Shown piece after piece: positions 1,901 to 16,555 of a DNA stretch of 33,198 nt. The DNA lies in IMG/VR virus record IMGVR_UViG_3300045919_000425, positions 1 to 33,198 of that record. One strand, written 5' to 3'. Both the position numbers and the translations under genes were made by a program. The DNA comes from a virus. Its lineage: Duplodnaviria; Heunggongvirae; Uroviricota; Caudoviricetes. The notes below the pieces were generated by a model that had not been told where the DNA came from, did not search any database, and saw nothing but the letters and a program-made list of their open reading frames with translations. The first letter of the stretch is position 1. Each line of letters starts with the position of its first letter.

Positions 1901-2247
1901 TCGGAGTTTCTTGTCTTTTAGCGGGTATTGCTTTGTTAGCGAGCAGGTTTATTAAGCCAAAGAAAAAGTATGACGTAGTAGTGATACTTCCGACCAAGGA
2001 AGATAGTGATGAGGTGATTTCTATTGGATTTAATTGTCCAGAAAAGTTAACCAAACTAAAGAAAATCGAGGAAACTCTTAAGATATATGATTTAGTATTG
2101 TTCCCTGATGAGATTGAAGATGATGAAGAAAAACGTAAAAAATTTAAGGACGTGAACGAGGCAATAGATATAGAAAAAACCGCAGATCAGGCATTAAGAT
2201 TAGCAATCAAATACTCTAAATTACATAGAAAAACATACAGAAATTAA
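1879..2247 (+). CDS. membrane-anchored hypothetical protein
   Basis: GGAGG RBS, GTG start, N-terminal hydrophobic helix followed by KPKKK. Confidence 0.6.
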   Translation: MEVINTVIGVSCLLAGIALLASRFIKPKKKYDVVVILPTKEDSDEVISIGFNCPEKLTKLKKIEETLKIYDLVLFPDEIEDDEEKRKKFKDVNEAIDIEKTADQALRLAIKYSKLHRKTYRN

Positions 2248-3038
2248 TTTCTGTATGTTAAGAGAGTTTTATAAGGGTTGTTGATGGATAAGCTAAGTAA
2301 AAGACTTTCTATATCCCTACGAGTCACGAGACCTTCAGATAGTACGCCTTTAGAGGTTATGAACGAAGCTTTAATCGCTTTAACCGCCTTACTCAGCCTA
2401 CCATGCTTAATTAAACTAGCCACGTCCGAATTATTAAATCTATCCATTCCAATGTTATAAACAAATGAAACAAGAGCCGCTTTTCCATAGGCAGAAATCC
2501 TGTGATCCATATTATTCTGAATTAGGAAAGTCATAACTGTCTCGTAGTTTGTATTTATTAACTTCCGTTGATTAAGAATCCCTTCGCTTTTTGTTAGGAC
2601 ATCTCCCTTTCTTACTCTCCTAATTTCACCAGAATGCTTATCGTGTATATACGTGTTACCGAATCCTATAGTGTAGGTTCCATATCCATCATCATAAGCT
2701 TTTTCTCGATAATCACCTTCTAAACTCTCAATAATACCATGTGATAAACCGATAATCAGGGCTTTATCGTTTCCTTTCTTTTTCTTAATCTTACTCATAA
2801 TAGCATTTCGTACTTTTATAAGAGCTTCGGACGAAGATTTCTTAGTTGCCCTATTAATTAAGTAGTTTATCTCCAGAATATGTAATGGAACATCGTTCGT
2901 TGTGTTTTGGGATAAGTCGACAGAATCTATCGTTGAGTCTCGATGGAGATTGGGTTCAACCTTCATTCTTACTGAGGTGAAGAAGATACTCGACAAAACA
3001 GCGCACTTAACAACAAAAACACAAGTTTTAACATTCAT
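2244..3038 (-). CDS. GH24 phage lysozyme with N-terminal extension (possible SAR/signal anchor)
   Basis: LEGDYREKAYDDGYGTYTIGFG catalytic region; ALVSFVYNIG; GLVTRRDIE. Confidence 0.85.
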   Translation of the reverse strand: MNVKTCVFVVKCAVLSSIFFTSVRMKVEPNLHRDSTIDSVDLSQNTTNDVPLHILEINYLINRATKKSSSEALIKVRNAIMSKIKKKKGNDKALIIGLSHGIIESLEGDYREKAYDDGYGTYTIGFGNTYIHDKHSGEIRRVRKGDVLTKSEGILNQRKLINTNYETVMTFLIQNNMDHRISAYGKAALVSFVYNIGMDRFNNSDVASLIKHGRLSKAVKAIKASFITSKGVLSEGLVTRRDIESLLLSLSINNPYKTLLTYRN

Positions 3039-3133
3039 CGCACAGCACCGACTTTCTGTCTCAAAAGTGAGACGGTTTTATACCCACCGGGTGGGGTGGG
3101 GGTAGTAAATACCCTATTTTAGGGTAGGGGTGT

Positions 3134-3162
3134 AATATAAGAGATTTAATAAAGGAAGTCAA
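3134..3162 (-). promoter_or_regulatory. sigma70-type promoter facing the lysozyme gene
   Basis: minus strand TTGACT-17 nt-TATATT. Confidence 0.6.
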
Positions 3163-3206
3163 CCGGCAGAATTTGCTTTTTGCGCATGGCCTATTTTTAA
3201 GATTGC

Positions 3207-3406
3207 GTACTAGTATTATGGTACACTAGTGTACTACTGTACTAATGTGCTAGTACCTTAGTGTACTAGCACATTAGTACAGGTAATATTAGTAAATTTA
3301 TATCATTAATCTAGTACATTAGTACAGTATTGTACCTATACCTTAGTGTACTAGTACAAAGGTATAGGTAATATTAGTAAATTTATATCATTAATCTAGT
3401 ACATTA
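3207..3406. repeat. GTAC/CTAG-rich palindrome and direct-repeat array
   Basis: 13 GTAC in 196 bp; 41-bp direct repeat 3281-3321/3366-3406; 20-bp inverted repeat 3237-3256/3263-3282; 12-bp inverted repeat 3333-3344/3359-3370; palindrome 3221-3234. Confidence 0.9.
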
Positions 3407-3425
3407 AGGTTGTAATTGATAAACA

Positions 3426-3475
3426 GCAAAACGCAAAAAAGGCAAGTTTATTTACCTCAGTTTTTTGCGTTTTGC
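3426..3475. repeat. 15-bp inverted repeat
   Basis: GCAAAACGCAAAAAA 3426-3440 / TTTTTTGCGTTTTGC 3461-3475. Confidence 0.85.
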
Positions 3476-3570
3476 CATCATATCCCTTAACTAGTAAGGA
3501 TGTGGCTTATTAAGTTTTAGGTGCGAAACTATCTAATTCTACTAAATCCCCTTTCTTAAATCTCAGATAC

Positions 3571-3599
3571 ATACTGCCATAAAATAAGCCGAAAGTCAA
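3571..3599 (-). promoter_or_regulatory. candidate leftward sigma70 promoter
   Basis: minus strand TTGACT-17-CAGTAT, one mismatch to the phage consensus. Confidence 0.45.
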
Positions 3600-3703
3600 G
3601 CTGCGATCTGAGAATTCCTGTAGGCATTAATGTCAGTTACTTTTTACAAACTAGTACAATTAAATATATTTTCAGCTCCCTATACATAATAGGGATTTTT
3701 TTA

Positions 3704-3733
3704 ATTCGTTCTTTTAACGTTAAAAGAACGAAT
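3704..3733. repeat. perfect 30-bp loopless palindrome
   Basis: ATTCGTTCTTTTAAC|GTTAAAAGAACGAAT. Confidence 0.9.
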
Positions 3734-3807
3734 ATAGGGCTTAAATCAGCAAATACTAACTATTAAGTTGTTGATTGTATTAAATATTTTTTATTTGACA
3801 GACTCAC

Positions 3808-3836
3808 TTGACTTCTAGTTAAGATTAGGATAGTAT
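3808..3836 (+). promoter_or_regulatory. early sigma70 promoter P1
   Basis: TTGACT-tctagttaagattagga-TAGTAT. Confidence 0.85.
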
Positions 3837-3999
3837 TTAAATATGGAAGGGAAACGAAAGAATCCAGTCCATAAGGTTAAAGCTCCCATACCGATAAGTC
3901 TCGGGTTGGGTTAGGCAGTGGGTAACTCCATGGTGCGGCCGGTTGCGGTGAAACAGCTTAAAGCCTTACAATTTAATAGCCTTACTACCATTAGGCGGG

Positions 4000-4114
4000 T
4001 TACGATTTAGATTGTAACGATAAGTAAAATGATTCATTGGAGTACGATCAAGTGGGTTAGTCACCACATGAAATAATACGACGATCCAAAGAATGAAAAC
4101 TTTACTTACTTTAC
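4000..4114 (+). ncRNA. candidate structured leader RNA, family R1 copy A
   Basis: covarying stems shared with 5491-5609 and 8692-8808. Confidence 0.6.
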
Positions 4115-4152
4115 CGTTTAAATAATTCAACAATTTTTAAGGAGATCCCAAG

Positions 4153-4440
4153 ATGACAAATCTATGTAACATCAACGAGCTTTCGAGATTTTCTCAAGTA
4201 TGTGGTTCCAATGAATTTGATAAGTTTGTTAAAGGCTCTCTAGTAGGTTCAAAGGCAATTCAAGTTAAGGATTCCTACTATTTTGCAGTAGCTAATAAGT
4301 CCTTTGAGGGTAAGCTAGCTTGGACTATTCACCAATTAAATAGATTCGGTGATGTGTCGGCTGTTTGCGACAAGAAAAGATTCTCGAGCTTTGAGCGTGC
4401 GGTGCAAGTAATAGAATCAATAGTAAAAAATCTCCCTTGA
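4153..4440 (+). CDS. small early protein, paralog family A
   Basis: AAGGAG RBS; similar to 7292-7600 and 10476-10793. Confidence 0.75.
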   Translation: MTNLCNINELSRFSQVCGSNEFDKFVKGSLVGSKAIQVKDSYYFAVANKSFEGKLAWTIHQLNRFGDVSAVCDKKRFSSFERAVQVIESIVKNLP

Positions 4441-4501
4441 TGTGCCGATAAAGAACGTATTAACTATAACCATACAAATGAATCATTAATCGGAGTTTAA
4501 C

Positions 4502-4747
4502 ATGGTAGCTAAATCAAGTAAAAAAGGTTATTTTGGCGTTATATTAAAGGATAAAAATACTGACGACTTGGATTTTAACGGACTTACAAGCGAGTTTTTA
4601 GCTGATTCGGACAAAGAAGCTTGTGCTGTGGCTCAATACATTCTTGAAAAAAGAAAAGCGGAACTCAAACTATCAAATCAAGTGATTATTGTTTATCAAG
4701 TAAAGAAAGATACTTTTACCGTCGTGATGAAATATTCTTTCGCCTAA
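4502..4747 (+). CDS. hypothetical early protein
   Basis: GGAG RBS, 81 aa. Confidence 0.7.
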   Translation: MVAKSSKKGYFGVILKDKNTDDLDFNGLTSEFLADSDKEACAVAQYILEKRKAELKLSNQVIIVYQVKKDTFTVVMKYSFA

Positions 4748-4795
4748 GTCCACTTAAACTACTTAATACAAAAATAACTTTTAGGAGATATAAGT

Positions 4796-5083
4796 ATGTC
4801 GAAATTTTCGATTCGCTCCACTGCCACTCAATTGGAGAGATGGTTAGATAAGCTAGGAGTAGCGTATAAATCTATCCATGCGGATTATGGTAGCAGGTAT
4901 ATAGATGTGAGATTGCCATACATAGACGAATTCTGTAAGATTCGCATAAGCGACCATATGGCTAGGTACGATTGTGACTTCTCTATTAGCCCATTCGAAT
5001 TAAGTCTTTCTTATGTAAAAAAAGAAGTAAAGAAGCTAATTAAGAAAAATTTCGAGAATCAACTACTAGAGGCACTAGAATAG
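4796..5083 (+). CDS. hypothetical early protein
   Basis: AGGAG RBS, 95 aa. Confidence 0.7.
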   Translation: MSKFSIRSTATQLERWLDKLGVAYKSIHADYGSRYIDVRLPYIDEFCKIRISDHMARYDCDFSISPFELSLSYVKKEVKKLIKKNFENQLLEALE

Positions 5084-5134
5084 TATCGTAAACTTATTAA
5101 TCAATCACATTCCACAAATAAAGGAGTAACTCTT

Positions 5135-5320
5135 ATGAGATTCAAGGCAGGTACGCTAGTTGTAACTGATTACGATATCAAGGCAGGCATAACAACAGGT
5201 ACTATCTACGAGGTGTTAGATTTCGACAACACCGTTGAAGGTAAAGAGTTAATACTTATTGAAGATGACAACGGCCAAAACACTTGGCAGAATCCATACA
5301 AGTTCTACGAGTCAAAATAA
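5135..5320 (+). CDS. small beta-rich (SH3-like) early protein
   Basis: AAGGAG RBS; FKAGTLVV..TTGTIYEV..ILIEDDNG pattern. Confidence 0.6.
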   Translation: MRFKAGTLVVTDYDIKAGITTGTIYEVLDFDNTVEGKELILIEDDNGQNTWQNPYKFYESK

Positions 5321-5333
5321 ATGGTCAAGCTAC

Positions 5334-5362
5334 TTGACTTCTAGTTAAGATTAGGATAGTAT
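5334..5362 (+). promoter_or_regulatory. early sigma70 promoter P2
   Basis: identical -35/spacer/-10 to P1. Confidence 0.85.
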
Positions 5363-5490
5363 TTAAATAGGAGAAGAATACTTCTCCGAGCACCGAGAGG
5401 GTTTAACCGCTAGCGAAACTGAGGTTAAACAAGTAAATGGGACACCGACTATACAGGTGTTGACCTGAACCCAAGAGTACCGGGTAAGTT

Positions 5491-5609
5491 CAATCGAAAG
5501 ATTGCAACGATAAGTAAAATGATTCGATGGAGTAGGCAACTAGTGAGATAAGCGCACTTTACCAAAAAGGAAAGCTTGGCCGAAAGATTAAATACTTTAC
5601 TTACATTGC
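5491..5609 (+). ncRNA. candidate structured leader RNA, family R1 copy B
   Basis: GCAA-CGA-TAAGTAAA ... TTTACTTA-CA-TTGC; GGAGTA/GAAAG internal loop. Confidence 0.6.
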
Positions 5610-5654
5610 TTTTTTAACGACTCTAAACAAAACAATCTTTAAGGAGATTCATAA

Positions 5655-5873
5655 ATGAGACAAAAGCTAACAATATTAGAAACTAGAGAAAAAATTGAAG
5701 AGTTAAACAATTCAATATCCGAGGGTTGGCTAGAGGTTAGCGATCTGTATAAAGAATTAGCCGCCAAACCTAACAGTCAAGATATTAAAGATACAATAGC
5801 ACTTGTTAAAAGCATTACCCGTGAAAATATCAACGAATCCAAAAGACTAGAAAACACACTTGTAAACCTGTAA
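5655..5873 (+). CDS. small coiled-coil early protein
   Basis: AAGGAG RBS, heptad-like pattern. Confidence 0.65.
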   Translation: MRQKLTILETREKIEELNNSISEGWLEVSDLYKELAAKPNSQDIKDTIALVKSITRENINESKRLENTLVNL

Positions 5874-5923
5874 CACAGGAAAAATATTCAAAAAAAATAA
5901 AGTCAAAAACTTTAGTCCACTAC

Positions 5924-5952
5924 TTGACTTCTAGTTAAGATTGTGAGAATAT
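5924..5952 (+). promoter_or_regulatory. early sigma70 promoter P3
   Basis: TTGACT-17-GAATAT with extended -10 TG. Confidence 0.75.
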
Positions 5953-5992
5953 ATGAATAAGGAAGGGAACTTGGAAACCAGGAACTTTCCAA

Positions 5993-6004
5993 GTTATTTG
6001 ACAA
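5993..6004 (+). promoter_or_regulatory. boxA-like element
   Basis: GTTATTTGACAA after a 5' hairpin; identical at 7114-7125 and 8619-8630. Confidence 0.5.
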
Positions 6005-6009
6005 TTTTG

Positions 6010-6073
6010 GGTTTGAATCCTTTAAATAGGATCGGGAGCCTGCTAGTCTGGAATAAGATGGCTAGTTATGATA
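6010..6073 (+). ncRNA. candidate two-hairpin leader RNA, family R2 copy 1
   Basis: covaries with 7131-7191. Confidence 0.5.
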
Positions 6074-6167
6074 CGAACGAAAAGTTTAAAAGCTTTTTGA
6101 TATTAGGTTGAACTTTTCAGTCTAATACAAAGCGTTTTTTAACCAAACAATTTTTAGGAGATAAACA

Positions 6168-6530
6168 ATGACAACTAATCAAATCACTTTCGCTCAAGCT
6201 TACATATTCGCTAAAGAGTTAATTACTCAAAGATGTGAAAACTACGGTTATGACTACAAAGTGTTTCAAAGAATTAGCCGCCAACGCTCCGACGCAAGAA
6301 AAGCGTTCCAACATTTCTTCCACTTCAACCCTGAAACAGTAATACAAAGACTTGCTAACGAATACAGAGTAAGTCTTGAAAGCTGTAAAATCACAGAAAC
6401 ACTTTCAAGCGGCTCTAAGATTGTCAAAGAAGAAATGAGGCTTACTTATACAGTTGGGCAATCTAACAATGAAGAAATTACCAACCTCTTGAGAAGATTA
6501 GTAAACCCAAAAGCTAAATGGGTACAATAA
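6168..6530 (+). CDS. early protein, paralog family B
   Basis: RCENYGY, RISRQRSDAR, YTVGQSNNEEITNLLRRLVN shared with 9112 and 10101. Confidence 0.85.
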   Translation: MTTNQITFAQAYIFAKELITQRCENYGYDYKVFQRISRQRSDARKAFQHFFHFNPETVIQRLANEYRVSLESCKITETLSSGSKIVKEEMRLTYTVGQSNNEEITNLLRRLVNPKAKWVQ

Positions 6531-6541
6531 GAAAGGACGCT

Positions 6542-6727
6542 ATGAGAGTTTACCTTGTATATAGAATGGAAGACGCAAACACTTACTCTTATCATGAGTT
6601 TATATCAGAGCTTCATTGTATAACACTGACCGAGGACAAAGCGATAGAAATAGTTAATGAATTAAACAAGGGGATTAGAAGCCTTGAGCGTGAAGCGTAC
6701 TATAACCCTGAAGACGTAATCGAGTAA
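6542..6727 (+). CDS. hypothetical early protein
   Basis: AAGGA RBS favours ATG 6542 (MRVYLVY...). Confidence 0.65.
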   Translation: MRVYLVYRMEDANTYSYHEFISELHCITLTEDKAIEIVNELNKGIRSLEREAYYNPEDVIE

Positions 6728-6757
6728 CAATAAACAAACATTTAGGGAGACTTAAAA

Positions 6758-7021
6758 ATGACTAAGAAAGGTGTTGAAGTTTCGACCGATTTCTTACTTG
6801 AAAAATTTTACAGTAAAATAAGCAGCTATTTTACTGTTCAAACTCATATCTTGGCAGATGGGACTTGCGAAGAGTTTAACGAGTTAGAACTTTTTAAGTC
6901 CCATGAACAGTTTAAGTCAAAGAGGTATGGGTGGTTTCAGGATTGGCTTAAAGCTCGTTGCAAAACGGGATTATTAAGAAAAGAAGGTAAAAAGCCAAAT
7001 GTAAGGTATTTCGCACTGTAA
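6758..7021 (+). CDS. hypothetical early protein
   Basis: GGGAG RBS, 87 aa. Confidence 0.7.
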   Translation: MTKKGVEVSTDFLLEKFYSKISSYFTVQTHILADGTCEEFNELELFKSHEQFKSKRYGWFQDWLKARCKTGLLRKEGKKPNVRYFAL

Positions 7022-7038
7022 AAATAATGGACCGCAGT

Positions 7039-7125
7039 ACTTGACTTATAGTTAAGATTAGGATAGTATTTAAATATGGAAGGGATAAGAGAACAAAACC
7101 TCAAAATCCCTAAGTTATTTGACAA
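7039..7125 (+). repeat. 87-bp exact direct repeat (promoter P4 + 5' hairpin + boxA-like element), second copy 8544-8630
   Basis: base-by-base identity; TTGACT 7041-7046, TAGTAT 7064-7069. Confidence 0.95.
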
Positions 7126-7130
7126 TTTTG

Positions 7131-7191
7131 AAGCTGTACTCTTAAGAGAGTCGGGGCTTTACTCGGTTGGAAACGATACCGAGTTATGATA
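7131..7191 (+). ncRNA. candidate leader RNA, family R2 copy 2
   Basis: AAGCT/GGCTT, ACTCT/AGAGT and CTCGGT/ACCGAG stems; TTATGATA tail. Confidence 0.5.
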
Positions 7192-7210
7192 AAAAGATTA
7201 CAACCGAGAA

Positions 7211-7265
7211 TAACAAACTTAACTGCTAGGGATATTAACCCTAGAGGATAAGAATGTTTCTTATC
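7211..7265 (+). ncRNA. candidate RNA, family R3 copy 1
   Basis: covaries with 10026-10078. Confidence 0.5.
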
Positions 7266-7291
7266 AGAACGAAATTTTTTAGGAGGTTCCC

Positions 7292-7600
7292 ATGACTACA
7301 GTTCAATCTATCGTATCTATTTCTGAAGTTGTTGAGTATGCTAATGTTTGCGGCTCCGATTTTTTCAAGTCCTCAATGCTTAAAAGTATCGGCTGTGAAA
7401 TTATTAAAGGCTCTGAGGCTTTTCTTGCTAATAATAAGTATTATTTCGTAACATGCGATAAGATTATTGGAGATAAAAAACCAGGCTACACAGTTCGTTG
7501 CTTAAATTCTCTCGGAAACACCAAGACGCTTGGCTCTTACCAACAATTCAAATCATATAACCATGCAATGCGTGTAATTAAAGCCCATCTTTCTAAGTAA
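7292..7600 (+). CDS. small early protein, paralog family A
   Basis: AGGAGG RBS; VCGSDFF, YYFVT, YTVR..NSLG, FKSYNHA. Confidence 0.8.
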   Translation: MTTVQSIVSISEVVEYANVCGSDFFKSSMLKSIGCEIIKGSEAFLANNKYYFVTCDKIIGDKKPGYTVRCLNSLGNTKTLGSYQQFKSYNHAMRVIKAHLSK

Positions 7601-7641
7601 CCTAACAATAAACCATTAAACTTAAACATTTAGGAGATAAC

Positions 7642-8310
7642 ATGGAAAATAAGAGCTATTTCTATTTCAGTAAAGAACTTAGTAAGTGGATTGTCGCTAC
7701 AAATCTAACTATTGTAGTAGGCCAATATGATAGCTTAAACGACGCAACAAAAGCATATGAGCTTTTAACTAGTAAGCCAATACTAGACACTAAGCCAGTA
7801 AAAAGACGATCCTTAAAAGGATTACGCAAGGCGGTTAGAAGCTACCACAGAGCGATAGCAAAGGGAGATCTTAAGACTTCCTCTTGCTCTAAAGAGGAAG
7901 CGATTGTAGCACTGTCTACTACAAGTAATCAACAAACAGACACTAAACCAGTTAAACGTATACGTTTAACCTCAGTTGAAAAGAAGGGATTCTATTACAA
8001 CAAGAAAGCAAAGAAATTTCAAGCCTATTTTGGTGTTGGTGCCGGGAAGCAACTATATCTCGGATTGTACGAAACAGAGTCGGACGCACGTCATGCAAAT
8101 CTCAGAGCCATGCTAGAGTACAGATCTAAAGGTTCCGTAACAATCCCATTTGTTTGTCCGAAAATGGGGTACTACTTGAAAGGTAATCAGTGGGATGTTT
8201 GCTTTTATAACCCATTAACCAAAAAGACGGAATTTATGCCATCTTTCAAATCTCAACTGGAAGCTAGAGAAGCCTACTTAGACGCACTTGAGGAAATACT
8301 CGGAGGTTAA
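7642..8310 (+). CDS. protein with AP2-like DNA-binding repeats
   Basis: KKGFYYNKKAKKFQAYFGVGAGKQLYLGLYETESDARHA matches the AP2 pattern; weaker N- and C-terminal copies. Confidence 0.6.
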   Translation: MENKSYFYFSKELSKWIVATNLTIVVGQYDSLNDATKAYELLTSKPILDTKPVKRRSLKGLRKAVRSYHRAIAKGDLKTSSCSKEEAIVALSTTSNQQTDTKPVKRIRLTSVEKKGFYYNKKAKKFQAYFGVGAGKQLYLGLYETESDARHANLRAMLEYRSKGSVTIPFVCPKMGYYLKGNQWDVCFYNPLTKKTEFMPSFKSQLEAREAYLDALEEILGG

Positions 8311-8314
8311 GTTT

Positions 8315-8533
8315 ATGACAATAAGAGTTATTAACGGTAAACGCTACAGTTTTGATAAGCAAAGATCTTACTGTGATTCAGTTGAAACTTTTTGCTACAA
8401 GGTTCATGAAGTAAACGGAAACAATAAGCAAATCTCAGTAAGCGACACTTTACCCCTCAAAATGTCTTACCTTGTTGAAATGATTAAAGAAAATAGGCTA
8501 TGCCTTGAAAGATTAGAAGGAGTAGAAAAATAA
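8315..8533 (+). CDS. hypothetical early protein
   Basis: GGAGG RBS favours ATG 8315. Confidence 0.65.
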   Translation: MTIRVINGKRYSFDKQRSYCDSVETFCYKVHEVNGNNKQISVSDTLPLKMSYLVEMIKENRLCLERLEGVEK

Positions 8534-8543
8534 TTTCATAATC

Positions 8544-8630
8544 ACTTGACTTATAGTTAAGATTAGGATAGTATTTAAATATGGAAGGGATAAGAGAACA
8601 AAACCTCAAAATCCCTAAGTTATTTGACAA
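8544..8630 (+). repeat. 87-bp exact direct repeat, copy 2 (promoter P5)
   Basis: TTGACT 8546-8551, TAGTAT 8569-8574. Confidence 0.95.
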
Positions 8631-8691
8631 CTAAATAGGTGCTGGTAGGGCTTACCAACAATAAGCGACAAGCCTACTAAGTTAAAGGTTA

Positions 8692-8808
8692 CAACCAAGG
8701 GTTGCACCGATAAGCAAGAAATTGAATGGATTAGGTTACTGTGGGTTAGTCACCACATCAACAAAAATAAAAGGACAGCCGAAAGATTCAAGCCTTGCTT
8801 ACATTGCA
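8692..8808 (+). ncRNA. candidate structured leader RNA, family R1 copy C
   Basis: TAAGCAAG/CTTGCTTA compensatory version of TAAGTAAA/TTTACTTA. Confidence 0.6.
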
Positions 8809-8845
8809 GTTCTTACAAACAAATAATAATTTTTAGGAGGTTTCA

Positions 8846-9524: not shown

Positions 9525-10028
9525 ATGAACATATTCGTAACATCTACATGCCCATTCTCAAGCGCAAGAGCGCTAGATGATAAGCGCCTAATCAAAATGA
9601 TCCTTGAAACTGCACAAATCCTCTCCACAAATTGCCATCTAGCAAATCTAACCGACGCACCATATAAGAAAACCCATCAAAATCATCCGTGCACTGTGTG
9701 GGCTAGACAGTCTTACGCTAACACCAATTGGTTAATCGACCACTTTAACGCTTTAAGCGGTGAATATACACACAGATTCAATAAAATTCATAAATCAAGT
9801 CAATACTTACAATATTTCATTGATTCTAGTAAGAAGCTAGCTCTTGAAGGGTTTTACCCAAATCAGGGAATGAGTGAGTTTGCAAGCTGCGTAGCTGATG
9901 ATCTCAAGACGCTTCAATTAAGCGTCACTGAAAAATACCGGGCATACATGAAAATGAAGTGGGTTGCAGATCAATCATCAAAGAGGCATGCTAAGTGGAC
10001 CAACACCAATCAACCAAATTGGCTATAA
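9525..10028 (+). CDS. pyrimidine-dimer DNA glycosylase family protein
   Basis: MNIF..DDKRLIKMILETAQILST..YKKTHQNHPCTVW..EYTHRFNKIHKS. Confidence 0.8.
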   Translation: MNIFVTSTCPFSSARALDDKRLIKMILETAQILSTNCHLANLTDAPYKKTHQNHPCTVWARQSYANTNWLIDHFNALSGEYTHRFNKIHKSSQYLQYFIDSSKKLALEGFYPNQGMSEFASCVADDLKTLQLSVTEKYRAYMKMKWVADQSSKRHAKWTNTNQPNWL

Positions 10029-10078
10029 CAAACTTAACCGCTAAGGATAATGACCTTAGAGGGTAGGAATGTTCTACT
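10026..10078 (+). ncRNA. candidate RNA, family R3 copy 2
   Basis: TAACAAACTTAAC-CG-CTAAGG/CCTTAG-AGG-GTAGGA/TTCTAC. Confidence 0.5.
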
Positions 10079-11894: not shown

Positions 11895-12277
11895 CTCAAA
11901 CAACCCAAGATCGCACGGATCTACACCTTAGTTCTGTATACTCAGGATCAATAGGTGTTGCAATGATATGTCACACCAACAAAATACAGTCGTATCAAAG
12001 GAAACTTTGATACGTGGCATTTTCGTATTAAGCTAATGAGTAGCGCTGTGGTAGCAAGTTAGGATTTCGAGGATCTTCTTTAAGAGATCAAGTCTCCGAG
12101 AGTTTAAGCTTTAAAAAGATTAAGAGCTTAAAAAGAGCCTTTCCGCTGCCACAAAAATACAAAGAGCCAAAAATCTTAGGAATTCTTTCCTAGGCTTTTT
12201 CGTGTCCTAGTACGATAGGACACTAGCAAACTAGTATTTCCATGTACTAGTTTAGAATTTCGGAGTTTGATTTTGGC

Positions 12278-12537: not shown

Positions 12538-12575
12538 TAGCATGAGGAGGTTTTTGACAATTTTCTCCGAGACTC

Positions 12576-12604
12576 TTGACTTCTAGTAAAACCTAGGATA
12601 GTAT
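12576..12604 (+). promoter_or_regulatory. early sigma70 promoter P6
   Basis: TTGACT-17-TAGTAT. Confidence 0.8.
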
Positions 12605-12711
12605 TTATATATGGGTAGTAGGGAATGAGGGATAGCACGCCTCCACTGACAAAAAGATTAAGTGCCTCGAACGCCATAAGAAACAGAGCAACCAACTTTT
12701 TAGGAGACAAC

Positions 12712-12957
12712 ATGAACGCTTATGAGCTATCCATCAGGATTACAGAAATTAACAACCAGATTGAGTCATCTAAGGCTCGGATCGCTAACTTTAGCAGTAA
12801 GAAGCTACATGGGACTGCGCAAAGGATTATTGAGAATAAGATCATAGAGCTTAAGGGATTAATTATTAGCTTACGAACTGAGCATATTAAAGTCATGACA
12901 GAGCTTTGTAATGAGCTTGGCGCAACATACATCCCAAATCGGGGGATGTATGCCTAA
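12712..12957 (+). CDS. coiled-coil hypothetical protein
   Basis: AGGAG RBS favours ATG 12712. Confidence 0.7.
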   Translation: MNAYELSIRITEINNQIESSKARIANFSSKKLHGTAQRIIENKIIELKGLIISLRTEHIKVMTELCNELGATYIPNRGMYA

Positions 12958-16401: not shown

Positions 16402-16413
16402 TTTCATAATCAC

Positions 16414-16442
16414 TTGACTTCTAGTTAAGACTCGTGTAGTAT
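16414..16442 (+). promoter_or_regulatory. early sigma70 promoter P9
   Basis: TTGACT-17-TAGTAT; upstream 26 nt shared with P5. Confidence 0.8.
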
Positions 16443-16467
16443 ATAAACAGGGAGAAGAGAAGGGTAA

Positions 16468-16510
16468 AAGCCGAGTGGGTTAATCACCACAGTAAATAAC
16501 ACGATGGCTT
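16468..16510 (+). ncRNA. apical module of family R1 (short copy D)
   Basis: AAGCC-GA-GTGG GTTAATCA CCAC-A-rich-GGCTT. Confidence 0.5.
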
Positions 16511-16555
16511 CAAGCTTCAAGCCCCGAACCGATAATTAACTTTAAGGAGAGTCTC

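Follow-up and report, generated by a model that had tools for sequence, protein, structure and literature searches.

The window analysed here is the first 33 kb (33,198 nucleotides, nts) of the 158,938-base-pair (bp) IMG/VR virus record IMGVR_UViG_3300045919_000425, which is 98% complete. Its early genes are gathered on the + strand in an island extending from 3.8 to 17.9 kb and carrying eight near-identical promoters of the sigma-70 type. Downstream of each promoter come an untranslated leader of 60-300 nts and a series of small genes, which have strong AGGAG ribosome-binding sites. In most of the early operons the first gene is preceded by a folded RNA of roughly 125 nts, termed R1, which is the subject of this report. 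Cultured phages are far removed from this one: the best match of its DnaE-type polymerase, from Myxococcus phage Mx1, has 29% identity, and a search with another of its proteins (522 amino acids) gave no match at all. Near-identical DNA is present in wetland and freshwater metagenomes.

Five early leaders of the window carry R1

R1 was found in five of the eight early leaders, as three long forms (R1a, R1b and R1c) and two short forms (R1d and R1e) (Table 1). With a covariance model derived from R1a, R1b and R1c, these copies reach 122-142 bits (E 1e-25 to 1e-29), and R1d reaches 26.5 bits. Covariance models detected no further copy in the 159-kb genome outside the early leaders, and the leaders at 5962-6167 and 7079-7291, tried as candidates, reached only about 9 bits and were not counted. 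A 16-nt apical word occurs three times, against 0.1 occurrences expected by chance, and the folds of R1a and R1c are recovered as minimum-energy structures. R1d has an ortholog in a relative (L049 14929-14997), and in both phages the element precedes a gene for a small hydrophobic peptide.

The match of R1e to the refined model is weak (12584-12689, 22.7 bits, E 0.025-0.09) and its fold was read by hand. The copy is backed by an internal loop of the prototype sarcin-ricin type, by a 4-bp Watson-Crick pseudoknot at the anchored position described below, and by a downstream ribosome-binding site with its ATG. The open reading frame listed from 12625 is probably misannotated, the true start being the ATG at 12713, because a canonical TTTTTAGGAGA ribosome-binding site is found there; 12610-12678 is a short-form R1 and not coding sequence.

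A preliminary description of this DNA had listed stems for three leaders and reported that their apical module recurs alone in a fourth. All of these stems are found at the places given in the three long copies, one of them (TTCGAT/ATTAAA) with a C.A mismatch. The apical GTGG...CCAC hairpin, described as common to the three, is not present in R1b, which has AGTG-AGATAAGCG-CACT instead. The recurrence in the fourth leader, now R1d, is borne out, but the module is not alone there, as a 4-bp P4 and the internal loop are kept with it. A fifth copy, R1e, had been missed, and in an architecture that otherwise stands, the pairing of the apical loop with the end of the A-rich linker had been overlooked.

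The fold of R1 is maintained by covariation

R1 folds as an irregular hairpin of considerable length. Listed from the base upwards, its parts are P1, a side hairpin with an A-rich or GNRA-type loop; P2, a short basal stem; an internal loop, CGA/CA, that is nearly invariant among the long forms; P3 and P4; a 6x5 internal loop; P5, also short; and an apical pseudoknot. The short form consists of P4, the 6x5 loop, P5 and the pseudoknot only. Since it retains the sarcin-ricin-type loop and the pseudoknot region, this part of R1 is likely to be the functional core.

Covariation was measured on 15 sequences from four phage lineages aligned to the covariance model; a count on 12 sequences gave similar values. 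Standard pairs occupy 89.9% of the pair cells, compared to 63.8% in shuffles and 30-43% when the partners are slid by 1-3 columns, figures to be read with the caveat that an alignment fitted to the model favours the structure. Two-sided changes were seen in 26 of the 29 pairs (17 in shuffles), and the covariation score was 0.577 against 0.184 in shuffles. None of 500 shuffles matched the observed value by any of these measures. Three diverged copies (L049 6479, L049 7818 and L054 9833) have little primary sequence in common in P2-P4 and still keep the pairs. Compensatory changes had been claimed for the window copies and were found there (in P3, T-A to C-G and A-T to G-C; in P4, C-G to G-C and T-A to A-T). 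The preliminary description had also set covariation among homologs as a test of the structure, and this covariation is strong in three other phage lineages. At the strain level, three variants fall inside R1b in DNA contigs from four sequencing runs; one of them, 5581 C>T in one metagenome, turns a G-C pair of P5 into G-U and so keeps the pairing.

Folding energies are at most modestly better than those of shuffled sequences (z -0.1 to -2.5), so that the support for R1 comes from covariation and not from thermodynamics. It is very probable that R1 is a real, functional structured RNA. The 3' strand of P1 overlaps P2 in several copies; an extended basal helix was considered as a switch and rejected, because it is weak and in 8 of 12 copies does not surpass shuffled controls.

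The internal loop between P4 and P5 fits the sarcin-ricin motif

The loop that separates P4 from P5 has the consensus GGAGUA/GAAAG. AGUA opposite GA(A/G) next to P5 is present in 11 of the 15 copies when the shifted loop of R1a and the bulged-U version of R1c are counted, and is exact in 9. When the loop is read as a sarcin-ricin motif, its orientation to P5 is correct: beside P5 the final A pairs with the G that opens the opposite strand, the U pairs with an A, the preceding G is bulged into a triple, A faces A, and the next position is a variable lower pair. In the copies that keep AGUA this lower pair is G.A, A.A, U.C or C.C, all of which occur in solved sarcin-ricin motifs, for which 6x5 versions are also known (PMC8450098). 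A loop-E-like motif had been suggested from the window copies, and the suggestion is strengthened by the 11 copies with the pattern and by the restriction of the variable pair to allowed substitutions.

As judged from sequence, the loop thus fits the sarcin-ricin (bulged-G, eukaryal loop E) motif, with which it has in common a 5' AGUA facing a 3' GAA, an A.G pair beside the helix and the 6x5 size (PMC8450098). The motif is a structural building block and no function-defined family; 4 of the 15 R1 copies break its pattern. A K-turn was considered for the same loop and rejected, as it needs a bulge of three nts followed by GA and neither strand has one.

The apical domain is a predicted pseudoknot with co-varying strands

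Pairing joins the 3' portion of the hairpin loop closed by P6 to the 3' end of an A-rich linker of 15-22 nts. The position of this pairing is anchored on both sides: the loop strand stops one nt short of the 3' end of this loop, and its partner is formed by the last 3-5 nts of the linker, directly before the 3' strand of P5. At this single anchored position an all-Watson-Crick helix of 3-5 bp is formed in 10 of 14 sequences, in seven co-varying versions. GUC/GAC is present in four copies, including R1a and R1c; AUC/GAU is found in R1d, UAAGC/GCUUG in R1b and GCAC/GUGC in R1e, and UUAGC/GCUAA, GAGC/GCUC and GGC/GCC in relatives. An anchored permutation test was chosen because versions of 3 bp and of 4-5 bp cannot share alignment columns. 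The exact permutation over the seven distinct versions gave P=0.0004, and none of 20,000 loop shuffles matched the observed count. With regard to an A-minor triplex, in which the third loop would lie in the minor groove of stem 1, the linker is A-rich but longer than the spanning of a 4-bp stem requires. From its sequence, the apical domain of R1 is therefore assigned as an H-type pseudoknot with an A-rich third loop.

Three copies without the anchored pseudoknot have the loop UGCAGUU(U)CA; a pseudoknot was sought for this UGCAGUUCA loop type and no consistent partner strand was found. The + strand of the genome offers no kissing-loop partner for the apical loop.

R1 is a previously undescribed family found in one clade of phages

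Relatives of the phage were located via an early protein family that is triplicated in the window (6168, 9112 and 10101) and has about 90 homologs in public assemblies. R1 is present on contigs whose early-protein homologs are 43-89% identical. Ten further copies were found in three related phage lineages from other metagenomes: two in L052/L053, four in L049/L050/L051 with one more in L056, and three in L054/L055. R1 is absent from more distant phages that encode this early protein family (L057/58, L068, L069-71), and neither model found it in four family-level relatives (G001-G004, about 50% amino-acid identity) reached via the DenV-like gene.

Larger collections were scanned as well. Exact-word scans of IMG/VR gave 25 loci for the apical word and 2 for the P3 word, which were only chance matches in coding DNA. 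Pattern scans of metagenome contigs from the Joint Genome Institute (JGI) and of 185,579 bacterial genome representatives gave 8 matches each, none of them confirmed by the model; the JGI collection scanned is evidently one without contigs carrying R1. A back-translated search of IMG/VR for the triplicated early protein family returned nothing. As far as these searches show, R1 is limited to a single clade of uncultured phages of about 160 kb from freshwater and wetland.

At gathering thresholds, Rfam 15 has no match to the window, and even at E<=10 none overlaps R1, be it in the window or in the relatives; this agrees with the initial failure to assign R1 to a named family. The nearest approach to a known family concerns another leader: L052 3077-3164, ahead of an early gene of a relative, has a sub-threshold match to freshwater-2 (RF02980; 26.9 bits against a cutoff of 49.9) that rests largely on the ribosome-binding site and the AUG. 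The end (6085-6167) of the window leader 5962-6167 resembles this segment. Freshwater-2 is, like R1, a cis-regulatory RNA of freshwater metagenomes placed before a ribosome-binding site, but it overlaps no R1 copy at E<=10. The proposal that R1 is a cis-encoded structured phage RNA is thus supported by the covariation, by the homologs and by the lack of an Rfam match. It is a well-supported conclusion that R1 forms a previously undescribed family among the cis-acting leader RNAs that phages have in their early operons; its architecture is undescribed for RNAs of that kind.

R1 is held close to the ribosome-binding site in modular leaders

Wherever the promoter pattern was matched, long forms start 111-160 nts after the -10 element and short forms 4-16 nts after it; in the remaining leaders of relatives the same type of promoter was seen upstream by inspection. 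The end of R1 is 25-46 nts from the first ATG in all copies measured. This spacer is unstructured, poor in G and rich in A, U and C. In predicted folds the ribosome-binding site is not consistently paired with R1, and its sequestration by R1, considered as a candidate, is not conserved. The genes downstream of R1 belong to unrelated small families without known domains and have no metabolic theme.

The leaders themselves are modular. A 5' hairpin is often followed by a boxA-like element, GUUAYUUGACAA, then by one of several middle modules, and finally by R1 or another module. The boxA-like element stands after the 5' hairpin in the leader of R1c and in five from relatives; it is absent from the R1a and R1b leaders.

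Table 1. Coordinates of the R1 copies, their parts and the accompanying leader features. Positions are those of the window unless a relative is named; helices are given as 5' strand/3' strand.
Feature	Position	Strand	Description
Early promoters	3807, 5333, 5923, 7040, 8545, 12575, 14050, 16413	+	eight consensus matches (TTGACT, 17 nt, TAGTAT)
Predicted promoter 5' of R1a	3807-3836	+	consensus match only
Predicted promoter 5' of R1b	5333-5362	+	consensus match only
Predicted promoter 5' of R1c	8545-8574	+	consensus match only
Predicted promoter 5' of R1e	12575-12604	+	consensus match only
Predicted promoter 5' of R1d	16413-16442	+	consensus match only
R1a	3997-4119	+	long form; 127.5 bits, 108.8 bits with second model
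R1a helices	P1 4000-4006/4011-4017; P3 4021-4028/4101-4108; P4 4033-4038/4092-4097; P5 4046-4049/4083-4086; P6 4052-4055/4064-4067	+	
R1a J2/3	4018-4020	+	CGA
R1a internal loop	4039-4045 opposite 4087-4091	+	GGAGUAC opposite CAAAG; sarcin-ricin-like, one-nt shift, A.A upper pair
R1a pseudoknot	4060-4062 with 4080-4082	+	GUC with GAC, the end of A-rich linker 4068-4082
R1a spacer and start	4120-4155	+	ribosome-binding site AAGGAG, ATG 4153
R1b	5486-5614	+	long form; 122 bits
R1b helices	P1 5491-5495/5500-5504; P3 5511-5518/5596-5603; P4 5523-5528/5587-5592; P5 5535-5537/5579-5581; P6 5542-5545/5555-5558	+	
R1b CGA	5508-5510	+	
R1b internal loop	5529-5534 opposite 5582-5586	+	GGAGUA opposite GAAAG
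R1b pseudoknot	5549-5553 with 5574-5578	+	UAAGC with GCUUG
First start after R1b	5655	+	
R1c	8686-8812	+	long form; 141.7 bits
R1c helices	P1 8692-8696/8700-8704; P3 8711-8718/8794-8801; P4 8722-8727/8786-8791; P5 8734-8737/8777-8780; P6 8741-8744/8753-8756	+	
R1c CGA	8708-8710	+	
R1c internal loop	8728-8733 opposite 8781-8785	+	GGAUUA opposite GAAAG
R1c pseudoknot	8749-8751 with 8774-8776	+	GUC with GAC
First start after R1c	8846	+	
R1e	12610-12678	+	short form at predicted transcript 5' end, promoter 12575
R1e helices	P4 12610-12614/12674-12678; P5 12621-12623/12666-12668; P6 12627-12630/12640-12643	+	
R1e internal loop	12615-12620 opposite 12669-12673	+	GUAGUA opposite GAACG
R1e pseudoknot	12635-12638 with 12662-12665	+	GCAC with GUGC
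First start after R1e	12713	+	
R1d	16459-16518	+	short form; 26.5 and 36.9 bits (two models); about 10 nt from predicted transcript start
R1d helices	P4 16459-16462/16515-16518; P5 16469-16472/16506-16509; P6 16475-16478/16487-16490	+	
R1d internal loop	16463-16468 opposite 16510-16514	+	GGUAAA opposite UCAAG
R1d pseudoknot	16483-16485 with 16503-16505	+	AUC with GAU
First start after R1d	16556	+	
GUUAYUUGACAA, window	5991-6004, 7112-7125, 8617-8630		boxA-like
GUUAYUUGACAA, relatives	L049 6390-6410, 7740-7760; L052 1082-1096, 2347-2361; L054 9750-9765, 13797-13812		boxA-like
Second leader module	6020-6075, 7125-7190; L049 6415-6478, 7755-7815; L054 13815-13878		
Third leader module	5388-5485; L049 8985-9094; L054 8140-8243; L056 upstream of 1045		5' of R1b-type copies
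49-nt repeat	7210-7258, 10025-10073		CTAGGG/CCCTAG hairpin

R1 as a possible docking platform on early mRNAs

The reading that we prefer, tentatively and with a probability of about 0.38, is that R1 is a shared docking platform or operator that controls the translation and/or stability of early mRNAs. The conserved non-helical surfaces (the sarcin-ricin loop, the CGA/CA loop and the pseudoknot) would provide a docking site for one shared trans-acting partner, most likely a protein, made by the phage or by the host. Bound beside the ribosome-binding site, this partner would govern translation and/or stability for the whole set of early mRNAs at once. The logic is akin to that of the gene 32 pseudoknot operator in phage T4 or of RegA-type shut-off, although R1 is unrelated to either.

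Several properties of R1 point in this direction. As R1 is indifferent to the gene downstream and keeps a strict distance to the ribosome-binding site, a single partner acting on all early transcripts is suggested. A core surface made of conserved non-Watson-Crick features argues for specific recognition over a generic hairpin. The layout is like that of the T4 gene 32 leader, in which an H-type pseudoknot is followed by an unstructured, G-poor stretch up to the ribosome-binding site, an arrangement that suits nucleated binding of the repressor. That operator is present in a single copy and controls its own gene, whereas R1 is multi-copy, precedes unrelated genes, carries extra conserved motifs and has no sequence similarity to it. 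Lastly, the close spacing to the ribosome-binding site is what would be expected of a translation or stability element, whereas antitermination sites need no such closeness; putR of phage HK022 lies about 270 nts from its promoter and acts over 10 kb (PMC9378689).

A number of observations weigh against a docking platform. No binding partner for R1 was identified, and because the ribosome-binding site is not consistently paired with R1, no simple mechanism of occlusion is visible. The leaders 5962-6167 and 7079-7291 hold different structured modules at the same position beside the ribosome-binding site, which may mean that any stable structure suffices there, for insulation or stabilisation, and that no specific operator is needed. 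The presumed recognition surface is also not uniform: L049 9095 (with its near-duplicate in L056), R1d and L049 14929 deviate from the sarcin-ricin pattern, and the three diverged copies with loop UGCAGUUCA, together with L049 6479-6606, are without the anchored pseudoknot. Finally, three R1 leaders carry the boxA-like element, which points to control of transcription elongation.

This last possibility was considered in its own right. R1 could be a nascent-RNA element for processive antitermination or for protection from Rho, which would fold on leaving the polymerase and render elongation resistant to termination. It could act alone like HK022 put, or the boxA-like sequence and host Nus factors could join it in a nut-like site of which R1 would be the structured half; long untranslated leaders and early transcripts of several kb would thereby be shielded. 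We regard such a role as unlikely, but place it next after the docking platform. Untranslated leaders of 200-300 nts are natural targets of Rho, and R1 is promoter-proximal and present in several copies per genome, with short forms at the transcript start and long forms 110-160 nts further down, an arrangement mirroring putL and putR (PMC9378689), which are likewise multi-copy, cis-acting structured RNAs after early promoters, one at the transcript start and one further down. The A-rich strand beside a helix recalls the minor-groove triplex of put (PMC9378689). Yet R1 does not resemble put in sequence or architecture: put is about 70 nts long, consists of two stem-loops without a pseudoknot or a sarcin-ricin loop, has no sequence common to R1 and is not tied to a ribosome-binding site. 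An RNA of the put type binds the transcribing polymerase and suppresses termination without protein factors, and what R1 has in common with this mode of action is the promoter-proximal position.

With the nut sites of lambda and the rrn sites R1 has in common its place in leaders just after promoters, and the succession of 5' hairpin and GUUAYUUGACAA in some R1 leaders matches the order of hairpin and boxA in rrn, which runs boxB, boxA, boxC (PMC10250234). Compared to boxB, R1 is far larger and lies 40-100 nts downstream of the boxA-like element instead of adjoining it. Moreover, the element is missing from leaders of the R1a and R1b types, which account for two of the window's three long forms. 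The only intrinsic-terminator-like site on the + strand of the early island is at 12175, and none is present between operons. No N-like protein was identified that tracks with R1, an Arg-rich early protein family being present in phages without R1 as well, and the constant 25-46 nts to the start codon would be left unexplained.

A related and rather doubtful proposal is that R1 represents a new class of autonomous phage regulatory RNA, in which a sarcin-ricin loop is stacked under an A-rich pseudoknot and which would be either a protein-independent, polymerase-binding antiterminator unrelated to put or a ligand-sensing aptamer switching the entire early programme of a phage.

In its plain form, the aptamer proposal holds that the pseudoknot, A-rich strand and loops bind a small molecule or ion reporting the state of the host, as in a riboswitch, and so tune the early operons jointly. 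Aptamers of the preQ1-I and SAM-II types are built as H-type pseudoknots whose third loop is A-rich, and a length of about 125 nts, six helices, a pseudoknot and strongly conserved unpaired positions are what aptamers typically show. R1 also lies directly upstream of the ribosome-binding site, and the overlap of the P1 3' strand with P2 would permit alternative pairing. This alternative, an extended basal helix, is nevertheless weak and not above shuffles in most copies, and the short forms are wholly without P1-P3. No conserved expression platform was found, the ribosome-binding site not being sequestered and no terminator hairpin following R1, and the downstream genes encode diverse small proteins with neither a metabolic theme nor a common pathway. 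A riboswitch is consequently improbable.

To much the same degree we doubt that R1 is mainly a processing or stabilising signal, in which case it would trim the long leader and leave the mRNA protected, as a site for RNase III, as one for RNase E, or as a roadblock at the 5' end. Early transcripts of T7 and SP82 carry repeated irregular hairpins for RNase III, including one in the leader before the first early gene (R0.3 in T7, in a place equivalent to that of R1); the T7 sites have two stems and about 60 nts. R1 is likewise repeated in several operons, conserved, irregular (about 17 bp in P2-P4 with internal loops) and located in early leaders just before the first cistron. Its short forms stand at the very 5' end, where structure guards against 5'-end-dependent decay, and other leaders have different structured modules at the equivalent position. 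A hairpin of this kind, however, needs no sarcin-ricin loop, no invariant CGA/CA loop and no co-varying pseudoknot; the pseudoknot and the sarcin-ricin loop also set R1 apart from the T7 sites. The 17 bp of P2-P4 are broken by two internal loops, to be compared with the about two near-continuous double-stranded turns that define an RNase III site, and loops of up to 10x8 nts (L049 9095) interrupt the double strand and would make a poor substrate. What the short forms conserve is the apical pseudoknot and not the long stem. The data thus speak for a platform with specific binding and against a mere processing hairpin.

It is very improbable that R1 is a self-cleaving ribozyme, or that it is released from the leader as a stable non-coding RNA with a role in trans, such as that of a decoy for a host protein. 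Strong early promoters would make the RNA abundant, and in its layout, with two conserved internal loops on either side of a hinge-like loop and with a pseudoknot, R1 is loosely reminiscent of the hairpin ribozyme. But no Rfam ribozyme model matches even at E<=10, the short forms are without one of the two loops, action in trans needs no fixed position before a ribosome-binding site, and the genome offers no complementary partner for the apical loop.

Orphan RNA motifs are numerous, and leader RNAs of early operons are known from few model phages (lambda nut, HK022 put, the T7 RNase III sites and the T4 gene 32 operator). Here, five early operons begin with one and the same module, so that the identity of its partner would show how this group of phages coordinates or shuts off early expression, and could also provide a compact and portable element for RNA control. 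The core of R1, with its sarcin-ricin loop and pseudoknot, is small enough for direct biochemistry, and the modular leaders are a natural system for studying how untranslated regions of phages are assembled.

Other modules of the early leaders

The GUUAYUUGACAA element, conserved throughout the clade immediately 3' of a 5' hairpin, resembles boxA placed as in rrn leaders and also contains a TTGACA hexamer. A second leader module has the core GGAUCGGG ... GCUAG ... UGGAA ... CUAGUUAUGAUA; it stands directly 5' of R1 in three leaders of relatives, and in the window it is followed by other modules. A third, composed of GCACCGAGAGG ... GGGACACCGACUAUA ... GUGUUGACC and a hairpin, precedes R1b-type copies in leaders without the boxA-like element (Table 1).

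Two repeats were also recorded. One, of 49 nts and 86% identical between its two copies, lies upstream of two ribosome-binding sites; the first copy is part of the leader 7079-7291 and the second is intergenic with no promoter nearby. The other is a GC-rich repeat of about 170 nts in a family-level relative (L031 3060-4210; IMG/VR record G003), present in three copies after promoters of the TTGACTT type. It starts with GACGGAGGCGTGGAAAGCTG, closes on CCCGTCAAC and looks like a structured RNA, unrelated to R1 and with no Rfam match.

Surroundings of the early island

Within the early island, 9525-10028 encodes a pyrimidine-dimer DNA glycosylase of the T4 endonuclease V type (PF03013; phrog_624, E 2e-49), which is widely conserved (424 homologs). 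The region on the 5' side of the island is syntenic between the window (2244-3800), L049 (4398-6100) and L054 (6545-8080), the order being a lysozyme or endolysin gene on the minus strand, 750-900 nts of non-coding DNA and the early island. In the window this non-coding DNA has dense GTAC/CTAG palindromes at 3207-3406. The block of L054 is located at the end of a 166-kb contig, which suggests that the early island adjoins the genome end.

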